A DNA stretch of 64,000 bases from Eubacteriales bacterium (GTDB taxonomy: Bacteria > Bacillota > Clostridia > Oscillospirales > CAG-272), in the NCBI GenBank assembly GCA_045123255.1, contig JBGVIN010000104.1, positions 27,113 to 91,112 on the forward strand, read 5' to 3'. Shown in pieces: positions 1,660-58,000 of the stretch (positions are counted from its first letter, which is position 1; each line of letters starts with the position of its first letter). The position numbers and the translations under genes were made by a program. A model generated the notes under the pieces. It did not search any database. It was given only the letters and a program-made list of their open reading frames with translations, and had not been told where the DNA came from.

Positions 1660-3713
1660 TTAGAGTAGCAAAGAATGCAGGTTTCTGCTTCGGTGTGCGC
1701 CGCGCAACCGACACGCTTGAGGGGCTTATAGCAAATAAAACGGAAAACGATATTATTTGCACTCTTGGCAAGCTTATTCACAACGAGCAGTATAGCGAGT
1801 ATTTAAGAAAAAACGGCGTTTTGGAAATAAGCGGCGACCAAATCGACGAGCTTTATAGGACCTCACTTTCGGGCAAGCGCGTTACCGTTGTTATAAGAAC
1901 GCACGGAGTGGTGAGGTCGCTTCAGGACAAGCTCAATTTATGCGCAAAAAATTCACCGAGCTTTTTCGTGGTTGATTCAACCTGTCCGTACGTCAAAAAA
2001 ATCCACAAAATCGCCGAGGAAAATTCATCTGAAAACGAAATTTTCGTGGTTATCGGGCAAAGGGAGCATCCTGAGGTTGAGTCAATTGTCAGCTACGCAA
2101 AGCACAGATGTGAGGTTTTTCCGAACGAAACGGAGCTTGAGGAGTTTTTGAAGGACGCAAATATCGCTCAAAACGGTATAAATATGGCTGCTCAAACCAC
2201 TCAAAAGCTAACAATGTGGGAAAAATGTCAAAAAATTCTCAAAAACTACTGTACAAATGCAAAAATTTTTGATACAATATGTAGTGTTACTGAAAATAGA
2301 CAGGTTGAAGCCGCTTCCTTAGCAAGGGACTCCGACGTCGTTTTCGTTATAGGTGGCAAGGACAGCTCAAACACCTCAAAGCTTGCACAGGTTTGTGCAT
2401 CCTTATGCGAAAGGACGTTTTGGATTCAAACAAAGGACGACATTGAGCTTGATAAAATCGGTGGCGCAAAAAATATTAGTATAACTGCCGGGGCTTCCAC
2501 CCCCGATAGTTTAATCATGGAGGTAAAAGAAACAATGAGCGAAATTATGATGGAAGAAAACTTTGCAGAGCTTTTCGCTAAGGAATGCGAGAACGGAGCA
2601 AAGGTTAAAATATACACAGGAGCAACAGTTACCGGTACAGTTATGTCGATTTCCGAAAACGAAATCCGTCTTGACCTCGGCACCAAGGTTACAGGTGTTA
2701 TCACACGTGACCAAATTACCGACTCAAACGACGAAAAGCTGTCTGACCTTTTCAAAATCGGCGACGCAGTAGACGCATCTGTTGTTAGTGTTAGCGACAG
2801 AGACGGCATCGCAATTCTTTCAAAGAAGAAGATTGACGGTGTTAAGAACTGGGAAAAGATCGTTGCATATCAAGCAAGCAACGAAACAGTTTCAGCAAAG
2901 ATTACAGAAGCAACCAAGGGTGGCGTTGTTGCAGTTATCGACGGCGTTAGAGTATTTATCCCTGCTTCAATGACAGGTATTGCCAAGGACGGCGATATGA
3001 ACGCTTTGGTTGGCACAACTCAAGAGGTTAAGGTTGTTGAAATTAAGGACGATAAGAAGAAGGCTATCGCTTCAATAAAGGCAATCTTGCGCGAAAAGAG
3101 AAAGGCTGAGAAGGAAGCATTCTGGGCAAGCGTTAAAGAGGGTATGGTATTCGAGGGTACTGTTAAGTCCCTTGCAAGCTACGGTGCTTTCGTTGACCTT
3201 GGCGTTGTTGACGGTCTTGTACATATCACAGAGCTTTCATGGAAGCGTCTTAAGCACCCAAGCGAGGTTGTTAGCGTTGGCGACAAGCTTACAGTATTCG
3301 TAAAATCAGTTGATAAGGAAAACGGCAAAATCTCACTCGGTCACAAGACAGACGACCAAAATCCTTGGAACATCTTCAAGTCACAATACGCTGAGGGTGA
3401 CGTTGCTGAGGTTAAGGTTGTTGGCATTACAACATTCGGCGCATTTGCACAGGTTGTTCCGGGCGTTGACGGACTTATCCACATCAGCCAAATCGCAGAC
3501 AAGAAGATTGACTCCGTTGCAAACGTACTCAAGGTTGGCGACGTTTTAGAGGCAAAGATTGTTGGCATCGATGAAGAAAACCACAAGGTTTCACTCTCAT
3601 CACGCGCACTTCTCGAAACAGAAGAGGATGCTGAGGAAGCAGTTGAAGAAGCAGCTGAGGAAGCAGTTGAAGAAGCAGCAGCTGAGGAAGCTACCGAGGA
3701 AACAGCTGAATAA
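1656..3713 (+). CDS. ispH: bifunctional 4-hydroxy-3-methylbut-2-enyl diphosphate reductase / ribosomal protein S1 (IspH-S1 fusion)
   Basis: N-terminal LytB/IspH region (AKNAGFCFGVRRA, TCPYV, SSNT) followed by four S1 repeats (GxV..V..fGaFV). Acidic EEAxEEA tail encoded by a short coding tandem repeat. Confidence 0.9.
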   Translation: MIRVAKNAGFCFGVRRATDTLEGLIANKTENDIICTLGKLIHNEQYSEYLRKNGVLEISGDQIDELYRTSLSGKRVTVVIRTHGVVRSLQDKLNLCAKNSPSFFVVDSTCPYVKKIHKIAEENSSENEIFVVIGQREHPEVESIVSYAKHRCEVFPNETELEEFLKDANIAQNGINMAAQTTQKLTMWEKCQKILKNYCTNAKIFDTICSVTENRQVEAASLARDSDVVFVIGGKDSSNTSKLAQVCASLCERTFWIQTKDDIELDKIGGAKNISITAGASTPDSLIMEVKETMSEIMMEENFAELFAKECENGAKVKIYTGATVTGTVMSISENEIRLDLGTKVTGVITRDQITDSNDEKLSDLFKIGDAVDASVVSVSDRDGIAILSKKKIDGVKNWEKIVAYQASNETVSAKITEATKGGVVAVIDGVRVFIPASMTGIAKDGDMNALVGTTQEVKVVEIKDDKKKAIASIKAILREKRKAEKEAFWASVKEGMVFEGTVKSLASYGAFVDLGVVDGLVHITELSWKRLKHPSEVVSVGDKLTVFVKSVDKENGKISLGHKTDDQNPWNIFKSQYAEGDVAEVKVVGITTFGAFAQVVPGVDGLIHISQIADKKIDSVANVLKVGDVLEAKIVGIDEENHKVSLSSRALLETEEDAEEAVEEAAEEAVEEAAAEEATEETAE

Positions 3714-3765: not shown

Positions 3766-3766
3766 T

Positions 3767-3850
3767 CAAGGGGTCCTCAAACCGAAGAATGAGGTTTGGG
3801 GTTCTCGTCAAGGGGTCCTCAAACCGAAGAATGAGGTTTGGGGTTCTCTT
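3767..3850. repeat. 2 x 42-bp tandem direct repeat (CAAGGGGTCCTCAAACCGAAGAATGAGGTTTGGGGTTCTC); each unit holds a hairpin
   Basis: Two near-identical units start at 3767 and 3809. An inverted third copy lies at 18165-18201. Confidence 0.9.
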
Positions 3851-4186: not shown

Positions 4187-4217
4187 GTAGAAAACGGCGC
4201 CCTCGGCGTCCCGTTTT
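4187..4217. repeat. GTAG-prefixed imperfect palindrome (REP-like element)
   Basis: GTAG + AAAACGGCGCCCTCGGCGTCCCGTTTT. Shares the core ACGGCGCCCTCGRCGTCCCGTTT with 35395-35424. Confidence 0.7.
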
Positions 4218-27040: not shown

Positions 27041-27133
27041 TTTCGTTCCCTCCCGAGAAATATCTATATCATAATTGTAGCATAAAAGCAGTCGCTTTTC
27101 AACCTAAAAGCAAAAATGGCATTTCTTTGCAAT

Positions 27134-27170
27134 GAATAAAAAATTCGACAAGCCGAAGCTTGTCGAATTT
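27134..27170 (-). terminator. intrinsic terminator directly after the tRNA-like structured element
   Basis: 13-bp stem AAATTCGACAAGC / GCTTGTCGAATTT with a TTCG loop (minus strand), followed by TTTTTTATT. Confidence 0.8.
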
Positions 27171-27171
27171 T

Positions 27172-27275
27172 TGGCAGGGGCGCAAGGACTCCTTTGCCTG
27201 CGGGCAAAGCCTTTCCGCGGATCTGACAGTCCACAGGACTGTCATTCAACACCGCTTCCCCTTCGAGTCTTGCGC
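27172..27275 (-). other. 104-nt structured element ending in a copy of the tRNA-Trp 3' end (possible att scar or ncRNA/leader)
   Basis: Closing helix GCGCAAGACTC / GAGTCcTTGCGC. Internal hairpins GACAGTCC-TGT-GGACTGTC and CTTTGCC-CGCA-GGCAAAG. The 3' end is ...GCGCCCCTGCCA. Confidence 0.35.
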
Positions 27276-27287
27276 TTTGTTCTCATT

Positions 27288-27317
27288 AAAACAAAAAAGG
27301 TACGACAAGCGTACCTT
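27288..27317 (-). terminator. intrinsic terminator after tRNA-Trp
   Basis: AAGGTACG / CGTACCTT stem followed by TTTTGTTTT on the minus strand. Confidence 0.8.
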
Positions 27318-27325
27318 CTTTGTTT

Positions 27326-27401
27326 TGGCAGGGGCGCAAGGACTCGAACCCTGGACACCCAGTTTTGGAGACTGGTGTTCTACCGACTGAACTACACCCC
27401 T
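27326..27401 (-). tRNA. trnW: tRNA-Trp (anticodon CCA), CCA encoded
   Basis: 76-nt cloverleaf folded by hand. Acceptor AGGGGTG/CGCCCCT, D arm GTTC/GAAC, anticodon loop CTCCAAA, T loop TTCGAGT. Confidence 0.9.
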
Positions 27402-33474: not shown

Positions 33475-35265
33475 ATGAACGTTACAAAGGATATTAAATA
33501 CATTGGAGTTAACGACCACAAGATAGATTTGTTTGAGGGACAGTACGTTGTGCCAAACGGTATGGCATACAATTCCTATCTCATTTTCGACGAGAAGATT
33601 GCCATTATGGATACGGTGGACGCTTCCTTCACTCACGAGTGGCTTGACAATCTCGAGTCCGCGCTTGAGGGAAGAAATCCCGATTACTTAGTGGTTCAGC
33701 ATATGGAGCCTGACCACTCCGCGAATATTGCAAATTTTGTTAAAGCGTATCCAAACGCGAAAATCGTTTCCTCGCAAAAGGCGTTTAATATGATGAAGCA
33801 ATTCTTCGGCACAGCCTTTGAGGATAAGCAAATTGTGGTTTCAGAGGGCGACACGCTATCTCTTGGCAAGCACACATTAACCTTCGTTGGCGCGCCTATG
33901 GTGCATTGGCCCGAGGTTATCGTAACCTACGATTCATACGATAAGGTGCTTTTCTCGGCAGACGGCTTCGGTAAATTCGGCGCACTTGACGTAAGCGAGG
34001 ATTGGGCTTGCGAGGCGCGCAGATACTATTTCGGAATAGTTGGAAAGTACGGCGCACAGGTTCAAAACCTTCTTAAAAAGGCAAGCGGCTTGGAGATTGA
34101 AAAAATTTGTCCGCTTCACGGCCCTGTGCTTGAAGAAAATCTCGGCTACTACCTTGATTTATATAACACATGGTCAAGCTATCAGCCTGAGAGCGAGGGC
34201 ATTGTAATTGCATATACGTCCGTTTACGGCAACACCAAAAGGGCGGTTATTCAATTTGCCGAAAAGCTTCGCGCATCGGGATGCCCTAAGGTTGTTTTGC
34301 ACGACCTTGCAAGAACGGATATGGCAGAGGCGGTTGAGGACGCGTTCAGATATAATAAGCTCGTTTTGGCAACCACAACCTACAATGCGGAAATTTTCCC
34401 GTTTATGCGTGAGTTTATTAACCACCTAACCGAAAGAAACTACCAAAAGAGAACGGTTGCACTTATCGAAAACGGTAGCTGGGCGCCAAGCGCGGCAAAG
34501 GTAATGAGGGAGCTTTTTGAAAAGAGCAAAAATATAACCTTTACCGAAACAACCGTTAGAATTATGTCCGCGCTTAACGACGAAAGCGCAGCACAGCTCG
34601 ACGCGCTCACTAAGGAGCTTTGCATGGAATACCGCGCGCAAAACGACGAGCTTGCAAACAAAAACGACCTAACCGCGCTCTTTAATATCGGCTACGGTCT
34701 TTACGTTGTTACCTCAAACGACGGCAAAAAGGATAACGGACTTATAGTAAACACCGTTACGCAAATTACCAACTCTCCAAACAGAGTAGCGGTAGCAATA
34801 AACAAGGAAAACTATTCGCACCACGTAATTAAGCAAACGGGAAAAATGAACGTTAACTGTCTAACTACAGAGGCGCCGTTTGCGGTGTTTGAATCCTTTG
34901 GATTTAGAAGCGGCAGAAACGTAAATAAGTTTGAAAACTGCGAGCCGCTCCGTTCCGATAACGGACTTGTTTTCTTGCCGAGATATATAAATTCGTTTAT
35001 GTCCTTGCAGGTTGAAAGCTACGTCGATTGCGACACCCACGGTCTTTTCATTTGCACAGTTACCGAGGCGCGCGTGCTTTCCGACAAGGAAACGATGACC
35101 TATACCTACTATTTTGAAAACGTAAAGCCAAAGCCCCAGACCGAGGGCAAGGTTGGCTACGTGTGCAAAATCTGCGGCTACATCCACGAGGGCGAAATTG
35201 ATGAAAGCTTTATTTGCCCGCTTTGTAAGCATGGATATGCTGATTTTGAAAAAATAGAAGCGTAG
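33475..35265 (+). CDS. multidomain flavodiiron protein: diiron MBL-like + flavodoxin-like + flavin-reductase-like + rubredoxin
   Basis: HMEPDH diiron motif. IAYTSVYGNTK flavodoxin loop. GLYVVTSNDGKKDNGLIVNTV flavin-reductase-like segment. C-terminal CKICG...CPLCKHG. Confidence 0.8.
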   Translation: MNVTKDIKYIGVNDHKIDLFEGQYVVPNGMAYNSYLIFDEKIAIMDTVDASFTHEWLDNLESALEGRNPDYLVVQHMEPDHSANIANFVKAYPNAKIVSSQKAFNMMKQFFGTAFEDKQIVVSEGDTLSLGKHTLTFVGAPMVHWPEVIVTYDSYDKVLFSADGFGKFGALDVSEDWACEARRYYFGIVGKYGAQVQNLLKKASGLEIEKICPLHGPVLEENLGYYLDLYNTWSSYQPESEGIVIAYTSVYGNTKRAVIQFAEKLRASGCPKVVLHDLARTDMAEAVEDAFRYNKLVLATTTYNAEIFPFMREFINHLTERNYQKRTVALIENGSWAPSAAKVMRELFEKSKNITFTETTVRIMSALNDESAAQLDALTKELCMEYRAQNDELANKNDLTALFNIGYGLYVVTSNDGKKDNGLIVNTVTQITNSPNRVAVAINKENYSHHVIKQTGKMNVNCLTTEAPFAVFESFGFRSGRNVNKFENCEPLRSDNGLVFLPRYINSFMSLQVESYVDCDTHGLFICTVTEARVLSDKETMTYTYYFENVKPKPQTEGKVGYVCKICGYIHEGEIDESFICPLCKHGYADFEKIEA

Positions 35266-35278
35266 GACTGACACATTA

Positions 35279-35390
35279 AAATGCAACCTACGGTTGATGA
35301 TATACACACTTCGTGTGGTGATATACACGCAAATTGCGTGATGATATGCAATGCGTTGCATTGATGATATACAACGCTACGCGTTGATTT
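35279..35390 (+). repeat. 5-unit tandem array (period about 22 nt) of TGATGATAT-linked hairpins
   Basis: Stems CAACC/GGTTG, CACAC/GTGTG, CACGCA/TGCGTG, CAATGC/GCATTG and CAACGC/GCGTTG, separated by (T/G)GATGATAT(A/G). Confidence 0.85.
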
Positions 35391-35394
35391 AACT

Positions 35395-35424
35395 GTAGGG
35401 GACGGCGCCCTCGACGTCCCGTTT
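35395..35424. repeat. GTAG-prefixed imperfect palindrome (REP-like element)
   Basis: GTAG + GGGACGGCGCCCTCGACGTCCCGTTT. Homologous to 4187-4217. Confidence 0.7.
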
Positions 35425-35486
35425 CTAACGGTGCGCGCTCAACAATGGTGGGTCGTTTACGCAAACGATACCGTGTTAAAAGAAAA

Positions 35487-35526
35487 CCCTGTGTCGATTT
35501 CAGACACAGGGTGCTTTGTTTTTTTA
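35487..35526 (+). terminator. intrinsic terminator of the flavodiiron gene
   Basis: CCCTGTGTC / GACACAGGG stem followed by TGCTTTGTTTTTTT. Confidence 0.8.
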
Positions 35527-36090
35527 ATTTAACAAGGGATGATTGCCGCGAGATTCATATCGCGCGTTTTTCTTTGCAAGCAAGATTGTGATTATTGTGT
35601 AAAGGGAAACCACAATTAAAATAATACCGAAAACAACTGCGGCAACCTTTGCCCAGGATTTAATAAACATAAGGCAGAAGCCGAGTGCGGTAAACGATGT
35701 GCCGACAATCAAGGCGATGATGAAAACAGCAAGCGAGTTGTATCTTGCAAAGCGCGAAAGAAACGCTTCAACAAACATAATAATGCCGATAGCAATCATA
35801 AGGTAAGGCACGAAGTCGAGAAGCACTTGTGCAAGCTGCTTAACAACAAACATAACGCCGAACGCAATTGCAACCGCACCTAAAATGCCGTCAAGCGTAA
35901 GGAGCGATTTTGTCTGTATAATAGAGTTGATAACGCACAAAATTCCCGCAAAGCAAAGTGAGCCGCCAATGAGCCAGCTAAGCCCGTCGGCAAACGTAAG
36001 CGAGCAACAGAACAAAACTCCGATAACAAGAGTAATGCAAGCAACAATAATAGTGCGCGTCTGATTTTTCTTTAAGTCGTTAGGTAACAA
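35524..36090 (-). CDS. hypothetical polytopic membrane protein (HdeD/DUF308-like)
   Basis: 188 aa with about 6 TM segments. TTG start preceded by an AAGGAGGG RBS. Confidence 0.5.
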   Translation of the reverse strand: MLPNDLKKNQTRTIIVACITLVIGVLFCCSLTFADGLSWLIGGSLCFAGILCVINSIIQTKSLLTLDGILGAVAIAFGVMFVVKQLAQVLLDFVPYLMIAIGIIMFVEAFLSRFARYNSLAVFIIALIVGTSFTALGFCLMFIKSWAKVAAVVFGIILIVVSLYTIITILLAKKNARYESRGNHPLLN

Positions 36091-53498: not shown

Positions 53499-54311
53499 TT
53501 AACCAAGACCGATACAGCCTGTGCAAATGTTGTTTGCATACGTTAAAACGTTTTTGATATCACCCGTTGCCATACCTACTATGATAAATATAGCGGCAAG
53601 AGTGCCGAGTGCAATTTGAAGTGCCAAAATAAATTTTTTAGAGTGCTTTTTTATAAAGCAAGGCTTCTTTTCCTCGGGTAAGGAAATTTCGCCCTTCTTT
53701 ATTTTCTTTGCTTGCTTTTCCATAATGGCGCGCACCGCTTCAAGCACTTTTTCGTAGGTGAAATTAGCAAAAATGTCGTAAACGACAGCAACAAAGAATG
53801 GGATAACTGCGTAAGCCATAATCTTTGCAATAACAGGCAAAATTTCGTTAAGCTTACCTGCGTCAACCTCGCTAAGATTGCTCTTTGTGAAGATGAAAAT
53901 GAGCGCAGAAACGAAATTTATAACCCCGTTGACTATAGTAATGATAAAAAATGCACGTCTAAAGCCACTTTGGCTTTTGATAACCGCCTTTAAGTCCGCA
54001 GGTGCTTCGTCGAGATTTATTCTCTTGTAAAGGTTTTTGAGCAAATCCTTATTCGAAATGGAAGCTGTTATTTTTTCCTCTTCAGATGGGAAAACCGCGT
54101 GCAAAACTATACCGCCAATAATTGATGCGATACAGAGAAGCACAGGGGCAAGTATCCACAAAAAGTGTGATTTTATGGCGTCGGTCGTGAATTTTCCCGC
54201 ATTGTTTATATCAACGCAGCTGACAATAAAGCAAATGCCGACTGCAAAAATCAAAACGGAAAGCACAATACCGTATATAAGGTGCAAAATTTTCGTTTTT
54301 TTCTCTTGCAT
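53499..54311 (-). CDS. polytopic membrane protein ending in a CxxC tail (…NNICTGCIGLG)
   Basis: 270 aa with about 6 TM segments. AAAGGAG RBS. 11-nt gap to the polyferredoxin gene, which has its own AAGGAGG RBS, so the two are probably co-transcribed. Confidence 0.5.
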   Translation of the reverse strand: MQEKKTKILHLIYGIVLSVLIFAVGICFIVSCVDINNAGKFTTDAIKSHFLWILAPVLLCIASIIGGIVLHAVFPSEEEKITASISNKDLLKNLYKRINLDEAPADLKAVIKSQSGFRRAFFIITIVNGVINFVSALIFIFTKSNLSEVDAGKLNEILPVIAKIMAYAVIPFFVAVVYDIFANFTYEKVLEAVRAIMEKQAKKIKKGEISLPEEKKPCFIKKHSKKFILALQIALGTLAAIFIIVGMATGDIKNVLTYANNICTGCIGLG

Positions 54312-54543
54312 ATATACTCCTTTATAATGATTTATAAAATATTAGCACAAATATTGTAACACATAAAGAATAGTATGTCAAGCAAAAAATAGGCGCGCGT
54401 GCGCCAAGAGCAGAGAATAACGAGGGGAACGACACGAAAAAGACATAAAAATCCACCCGAGCAGGCTTGGGACAAGCACACATCTTTAACTCAGGGATTT
54501 TAGGCAAAAAAGTGCCAAAATCAGACACTCCCCGAGGGATTTT

Positions 54544-54786
54544 TATGCAACCTCGCGGTTGATGATATACAACCTTGCGGTTGATGATATGCACACATTC
54601 GTGTGGTGATATACAATGCGATGCATTGATGATATACACGCTAAACCGTGATGATATGCAACCTTGCGGTTGATGATATGCAACCTTGCGGTTGATGATA
54701 TGCAACCTTGCGGTTGATGATATGCAACCTCTCGGTTGATGATATGCAACCTTGCGGTTGGTGATATACAACCTTGCGGTTGATTT
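54544..54786 (+). repeat. 11-unit tandem array (period 22-23 nt) of TGATGATAT-linked hairpins
   Basis: Units start at 54544, 54566, 54588, 54610, 54633, 54655, 54677, 54699, 54721, 54743 and 54765. Stems are CAACC/GGTTG (8 units), CACAC/GTGTG, CAATGC/GCATTG and CACG/CGTG. Confidence 0.9.
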
Positions 54787-55092
54787 TATTCACGGCGCAA
54801 AGCGCCAATCTAAATTGTAAATTTTTTTTGAAATCCGTGTGTCGAAAAAATAATTTTTCCGTAGCTTTTTGGCAAATAAAAAAGCCCGAAACCCCTTTAT
54901 CTGTTTAGCGTTTTAACACTTTTTCTCTTTATCACGGTGAAACGGTTTTCTTCGTTTTTTATTTGAATTTTCTTATTTATTATATATAATCTATATTTTT
55001 TGCTTGCATTTTTAATTGTATTGTGCTAAAATACTACCGTATATATTTTTTATTATATATTATCACGCAATAATAAAGAAAGGCAAAAAACA

Positions 55093-58000
55093 ATGAAAAG
55101 AAAGAATTTAGCAAGAATAGCAGTCTTGGTAGTATCTGTGATACTGTTGCTCTCGACCGCGCTTTCCCTGACCTCCTGCACCATAGCAAATGCAGCTGAT
55201 GCAGTTGACACTCAAACGTTTGAGGGATTATTTAGAGAGCTTTCCGACGTAATTATTGACAAGACTCAGTACTACTCAGGCACGTCTATTCAAAAGCTCC
55301 CCTCCACAGTTAAGGACAGTGACGAAATTTCCGTTATTGTTCAGCTTAACACAAAAACGCTCCTTGACGCGTATAACGAAAAGGATAGGGAAATTTCCTT
55401 TGCGGAATTTATTTTGACTGACGAGGCAGCCGATATTGAGGCGGGCATGAATCAAGCAAAGAAGGAAATTACCGCTAAGCTTGACAAAAAGGGCATAAGC
55501 TACGAATTGGGTGCTGATTATTCAGTGCTTCTTTCAGGCTTTGAAATCGTTATCAACGCGCGCGATTTCGAGACGAGCGCAAAATCCCTCCCAAGCTACG
55601 CAACCGCACTTGTAAGCGAGGTGTATAACGTCAGCGACGCTAAGCCTGTTGAAAATATCGTCAACGTTCACGAATCAACGGGTATTTTTAATAGCAAGGG
55701 CTACGCTTATGACGGCTCGGGAATGGTTGTTGCAGTTCTTGACACAGGTCTTGACTACACACACTCCGCGTTTTCTATGAAAAAATTCACGTCTACCAAG
55801 CTCGGTCTTACAAGAGATATGGTTGCAGCCTGCCTTGCAAGAACAAAGGCAACGACAATGGTTAACGGCTTAACGGTTAACGACGTTTACTTAAACGATA
55901 AGGTTCCTTTCTCGTTCGACTATGCAGACAGAGATGCAGACGTTTATTCATTACATAACAACCACGGTACACACGTTTCGGGTGTAATCGTTGGTAACGA
56001 CGATACGATTACGGGCGTTGCACCAAACGCGCAGCTCGTTTCAATGAAGATTTTCTCCGATGTTCAGGATTCTGCAAAGGCATCTTGGATTCTTGACGCA
56101 CTTGAGGATTGCGTGGTTCTCAACGTTGACGTTATCAATATGTCACTCGGTACAGCCTGTGGCTTTAGCCGCGAGTCAGACAGAGAAATGATGAGCGGTG
56201 TTTACGATAGCATTCGTGAACAGGGCATTAGTATGATAGTTGCCGCATCAAACAGCTTCTCCTCGGCATACGGCTCAGAGAAGAACGGTAACTTGGGTCT
56301 TACCTCAAATCCCGATACCTCGACGGTAGGCTCACCTTCAACCTATGAGGGTGCTATGTCCGTTGCTTCAATAAACGGTGTTAAGACTCCGTATATGCTC
56401 CATAACGGCAAAATCATTTACTTTATAGAATCAAATAATGCGGGCGCTGAGGAAAGAGATTTCGTTGAGGATTTGCTTCCTGATGGCGTTGACGAAAAGA
56501 AATACGAGTTCGTTCTTATCCCGGGTGCGGGACGTGATGCCGACTATACGGGTATGGACGTAACAGGTAAGATAGTTCTCGTTGAGCGTGGCTCAAATAC
56601 GTTCGAGGAAAAAGCTAACGTAGCACAAAAGAAGGGCGCTGCGGGTATCATCATTTTCAATAACGTATCAGGTGATATCAAAATGAACGTTGGTCTTACA
56701 ACCGTTGCGGTTTGCTCAATTTCGCAAAACGACGGTAAGGAGCTTGCAGCCGCAGGTAAGGGCGAAATCACCATTAGCCGCTTACAAAAGGCAGGTCCGT
56801 TTATGTCCGACTTCTCCTCGTGGGGACCTTCACCGACACTCGGCATTAAGCCTGAAATCACCGCACACGGCGGTAACATTCTTTCTGCAATAACAGGTGG
56901 CGGCTACGACCGTCTTTCGGGTACGTCAATGGCGTGTCCAAACCTTGCAGGCTTTACAATCCTTTTGCGTCAATACGTGGAAACCAACTATGATAAGCTT
57001 ATTGGCGACGGCGAAACAAACGAATATAAGCGTAGCGTAAATATCAACGCTATGGTTAACCGCTTGATGATGTCAACCGCTGACATCGTGCTTAACAAAA
57101 ACGGCTTGCCATATGCGGTAAGAAAGCAGGGCGCAGGTCTTGCAAACCTTATTGCGGCAACTGAAACAGAGGCGTACATCCAAACCTATAAGAAGGATGG
57201 CACCGCTATGGACAAGACCAAGCTTGAGCTTGGCGACGATGTAAAGAAAACAGGCGTATATACACTTAACTTCGACGTTGTAAACTTTGGCACAAGCGAG
57301 CTTTCATACGTTCTTGATGCATCGGTTATGACTGAGGGCGTGAGCGACGTTTTGACACACCAGGGTGAAACAACCGTTACTGAGGAGGGCTACCTTCTTG
57401 AGGGTGCAACCGTTGAATTTACAGTTTCAGGCGGTGGCAAAAGGGTTGGCGATGAGGTTAGAGTTAATGCAGGCTCAACCGCTAAGGTTACAGTTACAAT
57501 AAAGCTTACCGATGAAAACAAGGCTTACCTTGATAAATCCTTTGAAAACGGTATGTACATCGAGGGCTTCGTTTCTCTTTACAGCCAAAACGAAAACGGC
57601 ATAGACTTAAACGTTCCGTACCTCGCATTCTATGGCAACTGGGCACAGGCTCCGCTCTTCGATATGGATTATTTCGAAACAAACCGCGACGAGCTTGACG
57701 ATACAATCCCAACGCTTGATAAAACACTTCCCGATGCATATGCGACACGTCCTATCGGCGGCATTGAGGAGGACTACGTTAGCTATCTCGGCTCGTACTA
57801 CTTCTTGCAAAATCCAAGCGACAGAATTATCGCGGCAGACCGTGATTACATCGCACTTTCAAATATGAACGGCACAATCCACTCCATAAGATTTATCTGG
57901 ATGGGTATGCTCCGTAATGCAAGCGAAATTAAGGTTACCATCACCGACTCGACAACGGGTGAGGTGGTTTACGAAACGGTTGAAAAGCTCGTTCGTAAGT

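Follow-up and report, generated by a model that had tools for sequence, protein, structure and literature searches.

REP and BIME sequences are extragenic palindromes of Enterobacteria, associated with the RAYT transposase and with binding of gyrase and IHF, and they have no known tie to tRNA genes. Integron attC sites are 57-141 nt long, occur once per gene cassette and lie beside an integrase gene. In type III antitoxin RNA arrays (ToxI), units of 34-45 nt are followed by a toxin endoribonuclease gene (PMC3401426). Mini-hairpin DNA of the form d(GCGNAGC) or d(GCGNNAGC) is found in the phage G4 origin, in ssiA of RSF1010 and in the N4 hairpin promoters (PMC13037366, PMC3201870). The Gut-1 motif (Rfam RF01706), rated as RNA by Weinberg et al. 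(2010), was presented as a set of three hairpins and was reported from the human gut only, in 43 metagenomic examples with neither a host nor a function (PMC2864571). This orphan motif is the nearest catalogued relative of the repeats described here.

The window, i.e., the whole 64,000-nt stretch of DNA that was analyzed, contains two tandem arrays of hairpins separated by a conserved linker, and both arrays that an earlier sequence-only reading had proposed were recovered (Table 1). The 22-nt period and 11 units claimed for array 1 were reproduced by TRF (54544-54784, period 22, 10.9 copies, score 285) and by counting hairpins, and every one of the six stem types listed in that reading was present; for array 2, TRF returned 35284-35388 with a period of 23 and 4.7 copies. 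The linker TGRTGATATRCA (at most one mismatch) has 14 matches in the window, all on the plus strand and all within the two arrays, while shuffled sequences yielded 0.78 +/- 0.84 matches and none of 100 shuffles reached 14. A variant linker closes each array, TGATTTTAT at 54781-54789 in array 1 and TGATTTAAC at 35385-35393 in array 2. Seven of the 11 units of array 1 are identical (CAACCTTGCGGTTG), so part of this array is a recent duplication and does not constitute independent evidence. The z-score of the array 1 fold is -2.69 on the plus strand and -5.51 on the minus strand, where GNRA loops are found in nine of the 11 units (GCAA in seven, GCGA and GAGA in one each).

Table 1. Coordinates of the arrays and neighboring features in the window.
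Feature	Coordinates	Strand	Description
Array 1	54548..54789	+	11 hairpins (CA-stem-loop-stem-TG), 10 linkers TG(A/G)TGATAT(A/G)
Array 2	35284..35393	+	5 hairpins, 4 linkers
REP-like hairpin of another kind	35395..35420	+	GTAG-GGGACG...CGTCCC; directly behind array 2
Bidirectional intrinsic terminator	35486..35512		Common to convergent 33475..35265(+) and 35524..36090(-)
Terminator-like hairpin	54392..54405	-	GGCGCACGCGCGCC, then T run
Promoter-like site	54353..54381	-	TTGACA, 17 nt, TACAAT, with TG; for minus-strand operon
Perfect 11-nt inverted repeat	54444..54547		CATAAAAATCC / GGATTTTTATG; right arm abuts first array 1 hairpin
Array-less remnant of canonical module	27117..27173	-	Degenerate terminal 'A4' hairpin 27117-27135 and terminator 27137-27173
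tRNA 3' end copy, about 20 nt	27174..27197	-	From tRNA gene 27329-27401, cut within T-loop
Remnant-module promoter	27074..27102	-	TTGAAA, 17 nt, TACAAT; read directly from sequence

The two arrays differ in their surroundings. Array 2 begins 19 nt past the stop codon of the gene at 33475..35265, ahead of the terminator that bounds the transcript bearing it, and is thus located within the 3' UTR of that gene; the next gene downstream encodes a convergent membrane protein. In another genome, the orthologous gene has no array after it. Hairpins resembling the REP-like one behind array 2 also come after arrays at two other loci (L097 and L112). Array 1 was described in the sequence-only reading as part of a divergent regulatory region, and the distances given there were correct, as the start at 54311 lies 233 nt away and that at 55093 lies 307 nt away. 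This description holds for array 1 itself, but the context of the family shows no tie to these operons. On the minus-strand side, the operon encodes a protein with a weak EI24/CysZ match followed by a polyferredoxin-redoxin protein, and downstream of the array lies a gene for an S8 peptidase. The terminator-like hairpin, which follows array 1 by 140 nt on the minus strand and immediately precedes the promoter-like site of 53499..54311, would end any minus-strand transcript across the array. Promoter scans found no site within array 2 and one weak site within array 1, and promoters within the arrays were rejected given that the spacing of -35-like and -10-like sequences between successive linkers is unsuitable. 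GC skew across the window was too noisy for a leading-strand assignment. The ORFs at 54322..54771(-) and 54543..54749(-) overlie the repeat and are most simply explained as translations of it, as had been proposed. For the flavoprotein, the sole exact match was a 4.6-kb contig that ends inside array 2; such arrays break short-read assemblies and yield spurious ORFs. A database look-up found no record of a protein neighboring the window arrays, the left flank of array 1 had no match among metagenome contigs, and the closest fetched locus shared 74% identity with the window's genome over one gene, none being near.

Selection on the fold was assessed on 60 distinct 15-nt units, in which 96.1% of cells are paired (71.2% in shuffles) and the covariation score is 0.612, against 0.123 for shuffled units, none of 500 shuffles reaching the observed value; slid registers gave scores of 0.09 or less. 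Changes among these units were double-sided in 93 cases and single-sided in two, with 14 unpaired cells, a compensatory excess in line with the covariation check that had been suggested together with the sequence-only reading. Compensation is thus borne out for the family, but the claim made there that both arms always change together goes slightly too far, since unit 5 of array 1 (CACGCTAAACCGTG) is best read as the family-common CACGC-TAAA-GCGTG with one uncompensated G-to-C change. A unit has a stem of 4-10 bp that opens C-A...T-G and closes C-G (the closing pair in about 90%), followed by a single-stranded linker of 8-9 nt. Watson-Crick pairs occupy 2773 of 2830 stem positions, and 78 distinct stem arms were counted. 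The fold and the linker sequence are under selection, as had been argued from the window, and the stem sequence is not. The scarcity of G-U pairs was considered as evidence for DNA and dropped after a control, because true terminators of the same loci are 98% Watson-Crick too. A stack of four-way junctions formed by pairing of ATATCATCA with TGATGATAT linkers was also rejected, since compensation is lacking between the common variants ATATCACCA and TGATGAGAT.

Both window arrays belong to a large, little-described family of intergenic hairpins with a fixed linker in uncultured gut and rumen Clostridia, and a family profile matched both of them in nhmmer searches. The scan of related genomes that the sequence-only reading had recommended revealed at least 119 loci in species-representative genomes, all of them MAGs and, with few exceptions, labelled as Clostridia (Acutalibacteraceae, Oscillospiraceae). 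The hosts are mostly Clostridia of ruminant and other animal guts, and arrays reach 11-14 hairpins. Family-wide, linkers are spaced 19-31 nt apart, with a conserved part of 9-12 nt and variable parts that are palindromes of 11-23 nt. These dimensions, together with the lack of a recurrent neighboring protein family, exclude a CRISPR array, as had been concluded from the window; plasmid-type iterons were rejected on the period, the lack of a plasmid match and the lack of a rep gene. Unit blocks are duplicated in the window and at L047, L050, L078, L100, and L113, and arrays grow by such duplication. The presence or absence of arrays varies at orthologous genes. Six viral contigs carry the family, of which three represent one identical phage locus with a 3' UTR array, situated like array 2 between a stop codon and a terminator, and the rest resemble host tRNA flanks. 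As plasmids gave no match either, a phage or plasmid origin of the family was rejected. Clustering of 524 neighboring ORFs brought up just glycerate kinase at 16 loci, an XRE-type protein at 10, and a family of roughly 150 aa at nine, which most simply reflect orthologous neighborhoods. These ORFs included no recurrent transposase, and no RAYT-type or other candidate gene was found near arrays in the 8-kb loci and the one 64-kb window. A literature search with the linker sequence returned primers and miRNAs only, and no matching description was found in literature on tandem hairpins or on intergenic repeats near tRNA genes.

The usual form of the family is a two-part element of 130-160 bp with three units per strand, at the center of which the outermost hairpin is repeated in inverted form; both window arrays are one-orientation variants, of 11 and five units. 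Two-part elements typically occupy the stretch that runs from a tRNA or tmRNA gene terminator to the promoter that follows. Among the loci listed, the 3' end of a tRNA or tmRNA adjoins 37 of 67 elements and a fragment of one adjoins 10 more, an upstream terminator and an inverted second array are present in 66 of 67, and a promoter is fused to the other end in 23 of 73, such that the B half ends in the -35. At least 13 tRNA identities are represented, in addition to tmRNA. In 10 of 30 further loci, compared with none of 30 controls, a tRNA fragment truncated in the T-loop lies beside the terminator, and at L063 the whole element is located between two copies of a tRNA-Gln 3' end. An invertible segment as an explanation of the J/A4 inverted repeat was rejected, the flipped state being found in none of 77 two-part elements. 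The window also carries an array-less remnant of this module, which matches profile positions 207-266 (nhmmer E = 1.9e-4) and whose terminator shares its sequence family with the terminators beside two-part elements. The adjoining copy of a tRNA 3' end is the footprint of a small insertion at that end, by which the remnant module was displaced away from the tRNA. In its spacer, the remnant's promoter is similar to the one joined to the B end of two-part elements.

The unit has a fixed polarity. On the ATATCATCA strand, 51 of 109 triloops are GNA (three on the other strand) and 46 of 71 tetraloops are GNNA (none on the other strand). Wobble pairs lie mostly on the same strand, which also forms the more stable hairpin in 97 units vs. 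27 with RNA parameters and 102 vs. 16 with DNA parameters. By these three independent signals, the folded strand is opposite to that carrying UGAUGA. GNRA tetraloops, again on one strand, make up 27 of the 71 family-wide, while 19 of the 46 GNNA loops are GNYA, UNCG loops are absent and triloops outnumber tetraloops. An excess of triloops, GNYA loops and a lack of UNCG are unusual for RNA, and these loop statistics lean toward folded DNA without settling the matter. In one-orientation arrays the TGATGATAT strand is the sense strand of the flanking genes, and some of these arrays are certainly co-transcribed in that orientation.

We interpret array 1 as a tandem expansion of a polar extragenic-palindrome unit that is read single-stranded by a trans-acting protein, an interpretation that we hold tentatively, at a probability of roughly 45%. 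The unit would work in single-stranded form as a module of structure plus short sequence, and a protein acting in trans may read it much as RAYT and gyrase read REP/BIME and integrases read attC. The family would persist at the boundaries of transcription units, and its transcribed copies, such as array 2 in its 3' UTR, could have a secondary role in blocking 3' exonucleases or in insulation, by analogy with REPs. A period that ranges between 19 and 31 nt speaks against helical phasing of duplex DNA. Several observations count against this interpretation. The strand with the good loops is antisense to the orientation that is certainly transcribed, the well-folding strand switches at the center of the two-part element, Gut-1 elements have the reverse polarity with respect to the tRNA, the stems vary within an array, unlike REP stems within a genome, and no RAYT-type or other candidate gene was found in the neighborhood of the arrays. 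A more specific and rather improbable version holds that the family consists of chromosomal, structure-specific signals in single-stranded DNA, in which a hyper-stable C-GNA-G or C-GNNA-G mini-hairpin and the fixed linker are read by a host protein. Dyad-symmetric elements of 130-160 bp immediately downstream of the untranslated operons with the heaviest transcription (tRNA, tmRNA) would then manage supercoiling or replication-transcription traffic there; candidate readers would be a topoisomerase, a replication-restart or priming factor, or an HUH nuclease, and the 11-unit array of the window would be an expanded derivative. If this version were true, the Gut-1 'RNA' of Rfam would represent this DNA signal too, with the wrong strand modelled. 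With the strand polarity known, the question of DNA or RNA is directly testable.

A dedicated structured RNA in the sense of Gut-1, possible but doubtful in our view, would consist of transcribed arrays, alone or in UTRs, that display many copies of the single-stranded linker. Like CsrB for CsrA or ToxI for ToxN, such an RNA might serve an RNA-binding protein or RNase as a processing substrate, sponge or multivalent platform. The strong covariation and the GNRA loops common on one strand agree with such an RNA, as do the minus-strand z-score of array 1, with a terminator-like site following it and no ORF between, the array 2, phage and intercistronic copies, which must be transcribed, and the rating of Gut-1 as RNA by Weinberg et al. 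(2010); moreover, the conserved U-G pair that the Gut-1 consensus draws from the linker ends works on the modelled strand only. However, the commonest site of the family, between a terminator and the next promoter, is one where little transcription is expected, and no promoter was seen in the element. The antisense orientation of the good-loop strand and the triloop, GNYA and UNCG counts also speak against RNA, and no toxin or partner gene is nearby. The sequence-only reading had further pointed, as a speculation, to a box C/D-like kink-turn RNA, in which an L7Ae-type protein would bind the linker UGAUGA as its C box. UGAUGA is indeed present in every linker and archaeal C/D sRNAs gave weak Rfam matches (E = 0.57-2.9), but sR42, sR10, and sR1 scored 10-14 bits against cutoffs of 38-45, there is neither a CUGA D box nor a guide arrangement, and the related linkers GUGAAAU and ATTCCATA lack UGAUGA. 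As loops, wobble pairs and hairpin energy all fall on the strand opposite UGAUGA, the idea fails, and it is close to refuted.

Binding sites on duplex DNA, arrayed like operators or iterons and regulating the flanking operons, would account for the invariant 9-12 bp motif, for the position of array 1 between divergent promoters and for the B halves that end in a promoter -35. We regard them as quite unlikely, given that the linkers are not phased, that the covarying palindromes and polar loops go unexplained, that flanking genes are unrelated across loci and that many copies lie in 3' UTRs or behind terminators. The close association with tRNA and tmRNA 3' ends, the T-loop-truncated fragments at other loci and in the window, and the duplicated tRNA-Gln end at L063 could instead point to remnants left at tRNA genes by site-specific integration, in which the two inverted sets of three sites of about 9 bp, which resemble attP arms, would be the arm-type integrase sites of a decayed or miniature attP with a tRNA 3' end as its core. 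This is very unlikely. A second repeat accompanies just one (L063) of the 37 elements beside a full tRNA, and a mini integrative element of the attP/att type, which would have the tRNA 3' end repeated directly on either side, was rejected on that count; in addition, the tRNA identities are too many for one integrase, the covarying palindromic spacers are left unexplained, and no tRNA is near the one-orientation arrays of 3' UTRs and operons, among them the two in the window. A neutral minisatellite, in which a palindromic unit is amplified by slippage without selection, is highly improbable as an account of the family. Runs of identical units in array 1, L047, L050, L078, and L100 look like slippage, but the 78 distinct stem arms, paired at 96-98% in hundreds of units from many genera, and the conservation of a higher-order architecture do not. 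The covariation contradicts this explanation, which is valid solely as a mechanism of unit gain in array 1; the earlier dismissal of simple slippage is supported.

Among the known systems, the interpretation of array 1 as an expanded extragenic palindrome read single-stranded can be placed as follows. Like ToxI, the family forms tandem direct repeats of a short structured unit beside a terminator, but no toxin endoribonuclease gene lies beside any array and the neighbors vary across loci. Integron attC sites share with it the strand-specific recognition of a folded single strand, the short conserved flanks and the compensatory freedom of the stem, whereas there are neither cassettes nor an integrase here. 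Mini-hairpin DNA shares the C-GNA-G and C-GNNA-G loops on one strand, the short GC-rich stems and a conserved single-stranded flank, but is known from single sites in phage and plasmid origins and promoters rather than from tandem chromosomal arrays.

The likeness to Gut-1 is closer. Both come from gut metagenomes and have short, covarying hairpins of variable stem with loops of the CUUCG or UUGC type and a fixed linker between them, GUGAAAU or GUGAUAU in Gut-1 and here the 2 nt longer UGAUGAUAU (usual) or UGGUGAUAU, a variant that contains GUGAUAU. The published Gut-1 loci also follow the same order as the family: a terminator comes after a gene stop or a tRNA, and behind it lie an array, a center with complementarity to the first hairpin, and an array in inverted orientation. 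They differ in that the stems here open CA...TG and that the polarity of the linker relative to the upstream tRNA is reversed in Gut-1. The Gut-1 covariance model scored 23.4 and 22.0 bits on array 1 (E = 0.019 and 0.044), compared with a gathering score of 50; there were no hits at that score in the window or in 18 loci with two-part elements, and none at E <= 1 in L090. At gathering threshold, Rfam returned only tRNA, tmRNA, 5S, 6S, and LSU from the window and these 18 loci. The family represents a sister family, much larger than Gut-1 and tied to named clades (Acutalibacteraceae, Oscillospiraceae, and related Clostridia), with a higher-order architecture and a specific address in the first bases past tRNA and tmRNA terminators.

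The element most resembles extragenic palindromes of the REP/BIME type, which here would be read single-stranded. Both are extragenic, multi-copy, hairpin-forming and clustered at the ends of transcription units; both form inverted doublets as well as tandem clusters interspersed with conserved linker motifs, vary in their presence between orthologous sites, and have transcribed copies in 3' UTRs. The roles of the parts are exchanged, as REPs have a conserved palindrome and variable linkers and the reverse is true here. REP stems are conserved within a genome and the stems here differ between units; the imperfect palindrome that defines REPs, about 35 bp long with GTAG at its 5' end and identical from copy to copy in a genome, was not seen, and the units contain no GTAG. 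If a protein does read any hairpin that carries the linker, this would be a second natural case, after attC, of recognition of structure over stem sequence, and the family would be a Gram-positive candidate counterpart to the REP/RAYT/gyrase system.

The hairpin-linker arrays of the window are real and non-random, and their structure is under selection. The sequence-only reading had described variable stems joined by a near-invariant linker at 54544-54786 and 35279-35390; the sequence matches that description, and all six of the stem types it listed are found there. The 12-mer TGRTGATATRCA, allowing at most one mismatch, has 14 matches in the 64-kb window (0.78 in shuffles), all 14 on the plus strand and within the two arrays, which hold 11 hairpins and 10 linkers (array 1) and 5 hairpins and 4 linkers (array 2). 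Across 460 inter-linker hairpins of the family, Watson-Crick pairing holds at 2773 of the 2830 stem positions, with 78 distinct stem arms and a C-G closing pair in about 90%. In a set of 60 distinct equal-length units, pairing held in 96.1% of cells (71.2% when shuffled) and the covariation score was 0.612 vs. 0.123, a value reached by none of 500 shuffles, while slid registers gave at most 0.09. Changes in these stems were double-sided in 93 cases and single-sided in 2, so that compensatory changes show the excess over single-arm ones whose lack would have counted against the sequence-only reading, and the proposed pattern of selected structure plus linker proves correct.

In array 1, unit 5 (CACGCTAAACCGTG) is the family-common CACGC-TAAA-GCGTG with a single uncompensated change, and 7 of the 11 units are identical, indicating that the array is in part a recent duplication. 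Its neighbors, previously given as an operon for a polytopic CxxC protein and a polyferredoxin and a divergent gene for a 2451-aa protease, were borne out by the domain content of the products. Short-read assemblies are broken by such arrays: the only public contig encoding the window's exact flavoprotein (L120, a Logan contig of 4580 nt) terminates about 126 nt past the flavoprotein stop codon, within array 2.

Features of the window, with Tandem Repeats Finder values for the two arrays
Feature	Position	Strand	Description
Array 1	54544-54784		Period 22, 10.9 copies, score 285
Array 1 flank		minus	Protein with weak EI24/CysZ match; polyferredoxin-redoxin protein
Array 1 flank		plus	2451-aa S8 peptidase with PA and BspA-type LRR domains
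Match to Gut-1 model (RF01706)	54560-54728	TGATGATAT strand
Array 2	35284-35388		Period 23, 4.7 copies
GTAG-type repeat	35395-35420; 4187-4212		Second, unrelated REP-type repeat: GTAG plus hairpin GGGACG...CGTCCC
tRNA gene	27329-27401
Copy of tRNA 3′ end	27174-27197		About 20 nt duplicated (GGCAGGGGCGCAAGGACTC)
Copy of tRNA 3′ end plus insert between copies	27174-27328		Insert of about 130 nt with own terminator and two hairpins, without linkers
Tandem duplicate	3766-3848		Perfect, 42 nt, 2.0 copies; unrelated to the hairpin-linker arrays
GAAGAAGC-type repeats	3630-3706		12/24/27 nt, near the 42-nt duplicate; unrelated to the hairpin-linker arrays

Copies of the linker in other genomes, which the sequence-only reading had proposed to count, proved widespread: with each species represented by a single genome, searching for linker pairs separated by 8-14 nt gave at least 119 loci. 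Among the matches listed, all were from metagenome-assembled genomes, nearly all labeled Clostridia, Eubacteriales, Acutalibacteraceae, Oscillospiraceae, Ruminococcaceae or 'Christensenella sp. UBA' (one contig carried a Kiritimatiellia label), and ruminant guts were the main source according to the MAG names. Only six viral contigs carried the family, and no carrier was found among the plasmids searched. The window's genome is close to none of the compared loci (L-numbers below).

Most clusters are two-part elements rather than one-orientation arrays, in which three ATATCATCA linkers precede three TGATGATAT linkers; this exact 3+3 layout occurs in 49 cases among the loci listed, and many variants are off by one unit. 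The A end comprises a CC...GG hairpin (A4), then ATAAAAAAA and a strong bidirectional terminator, directly after which a convergent tRNA or tmRNA CCA end lies in 37 of the 67 elements whose flanks are long enough, with at least 13 tRNA identities and a distance of 54-64 nt to the last linker. Ten of the remaining 30 have a tRNA/tmRNA 3′-end fragment of at least 14 nt after the terminator (control, 0/30); read by eye, these fragments start inside the T-loop, and they are what subsequent insertions at the tRNA left behind. Inserts of 230-540 nt separate the full tRNA from the element-side fragment in L011, L022, L025, L042, and L059. In the window, an array-less remnant of the two-part module (family profile match, E = 1.9e-4) adjoins the tRNA gene and retains a tRNA 3′ fragment, a same-family terminator, a degenerate A4 hairpin and a TTGAAA-17-TACAAT promoter; the insert there resembles a very small insertion within the T-loop of this tRNA gene. 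Directly past the terminator, the sequences GGGTAGTTTGAACTTAATGACACGAA and GTGTTTACAG... recur in the A-end flanks of L059 (second element), L073 (two elements), L045, L058, and L061, in which no tRNA was found; stable RNA genes of other kinds, so far unannotated, may have their 3′ ends there.

Over 10-13 nt, the center, J, is identical to the reverse complement of the 5′ arm and loop of A4, and it covaries with A4 in at least eight sequence classes. The B end closes with hairpin-TGATTT and in 23 of 73 loci provides the -35 of a TTGAYN-N16-18-TANAWT promoter whose spacer and leader are conserved and whose downstream genes differ. In L016, L020, L036, L043, L057, L058, and L061 this promoter drives a small protein (MSKNYLL.YSEQLATDIELLCQNIKA...), which we presume to resemble the four-helix-bundle '23S rRNA intervening sequence protein' family. 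A B-end subfamily (L010, L011, L026, L041, L046, L053, L064; L039, L042, L072) has a T-arm-like hairpin, e.g., GGTACG-TGAGTTCAAGTC-CGTAC, plus AAAATATCTTTTTT, and past the B end of L072 lie a tRNA-like stretch (about 66 nt, with a CCA end) and a terminator; ARAGORN called neither the hairpin nor this stretch. Only L063 (2280-2600) has the same tRNA-Gln 3′ end on both sides of its two-part element (18 nt identical, the outer copy 41 nt past the B end and followed by a second terminator), and this element could have arrived along with a replacement tRNA end.

One-orientation arrays in other loci have 4-13 linkers, with block duplications of one to three units in L047, L050, L078, L084, L100, and L113. 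They lie between stop codon and terminator (array 2 and one phage locus on three contigs), between cistrons (L044, L050, L084), after terminators (L078, L098, L101) or between divergent genes (array 1, L052, L112), and in nearly all of them the TGATGATAT strand is the sense of a neighboring gene. Array 2 is lineage-specific, given that in L109 a rubredoxin gene and a terminator, but no array, come after the orthologous flavoprotein gene. The GTAG-type repeat (3 matches in the window, 0.12 expected) is frequent directly behind hairpin-linker arrays; it also occurs past those of L097 and L112, with a shorter GTAGGGGCGACC stretch in L098.

Loops, wobbles and hairpin stability all place the folded strand opposite the one on which a UGAUGA C-box/kink-turn had been proposed. 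The ATATCATCA strand has GNA in 51 of 109 triloops (3 on the other strand) and GNNA in 46 of 71 tetraloops (27 GNRA and 19 GNYA; 0 on the other). Non-Watson-Crick positions are mainly A-C on the TGATGATAT strand, i.e., G-T wobble on the ATATCATCA strand (raw count 32 vs. 7); with duplicates and parsing artefacts removed, 11 vs. 2 remain in A halves and 6 vs. 1 in B halves, and A4 hairpins give 5 vs. 1 by our own reading. The linker variant CGATGATAT accounts for part of this excess. The more stable hairpin is on the ATATCATCA strand by RNA parameters (97 vs. 27) and DNA parameters (102 vs. 16), and fold z-scores for array 1 are -5.51 on the minus and -2.69 on the plus strand. Moreover, the D box is absent and C/D models reach only 10-14 bits in a permissive Rfam scan. 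Together with the wrong strand, this all but rules out a C/D kink-turn RNA.

The best-supported reading, to which we assign a probability of roughly 0.45, is a structure-plus-linker module that would be read in single-stranded form by a putative trans-acting protein, persist at transcription-unit boundaries, gain and lose units via block duplication and, where transcribed, have a secondary role as an RNA 3′-end barrier; no recurrent protein was found among the genes next to arrays. The motifs C-GNA-G and C-GNNA-G are known as 'mini-hairpin DNA' (PMC13037366, PMC3201870), and triloop dominance, frequent GNYA tetraloops and the absence of UNCG loops from both strands in our loop survey lean towards DNA. 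The scarcity of G-U does not discriminate, since in true terminators next to the elements Watson-Crick positions likewise make up 98% (484 WC, 5 A-C, 2 G-T); several of these terminators have UUCG loops in the tRNA sense by our own reading. The strands also pose a paradox: many one-orientation arrays must be transcribed in the sense opposite to the well-folding strand, and this strand changes over at the center of two-part elements. A dedicated noncoding RNA or protein sponge is possible, if unlikely. Operator or iteron sites on the duplex seem improbable, as linker-to-linker distances of 19-31 nt (modes 23, 25, and 22) leave such sites without phasing. Slightly less credible are remnants of att arms, with flanking tRNA repeats in only 1 of 37 cases, and we give very little weight to a neutral minisatellite.

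Among known RNAs, Gut-1 (RF01706) gave two matches in array 1 in the permissive Rfam scan, at 23.4 and 22.0 bits, below its gathering score of 50 bits. Its consensus has three variable hairpins with GUGAAAU between them. Its published alignment, which includes the flanks, runs from a tRNA or gene stop through a terminator, a GUGAUAU-linker array and a center complementary to the 5′ side of the first hairpin to an inverted AUAUCAC-linker array (PMC2864571, supplementary file 95). This layout is the same as that of the two-part element, with linker polarity relative to the tRNA reversed. In L044 (about 2415-2580), the TGATGATAT array runs into one of the same design with linker ATTCCATA / ATGCCATA / ATTACATA, and such a switch points to a superfamily in which linkers come in several types. 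Given the shared layout, sub-threshold scores and this third linker type, we place the window's arrays in a Gut-1-like superfamily as a new variant and not among Gut-1 members. The stable-loop and wobble signals lie on the strand opposite to that of the Gut-1 model here, and the Gut-1 strand assignment may therefore deserve another look, although the Gut-1 consensus contains a conserved U-G pair that favors the modeled strand. The only statement made about Gut-1 is its occurrence in human gut sequences (PMC2864571). As far as our literature searches show, the tRNA/tmRNA-terminator address, two-part architecture and strand polarity are undescribed. In behavior, the nearest analogue is REP/BIME, likewise extragenic and multi-copy, found at unit boundaries as inverted doublets or tandem clusters, and variable in presence at orthologous sites. 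Compared with REP/BIME, however, the hairpin-linker family exchanges which part is conserved and which varies.
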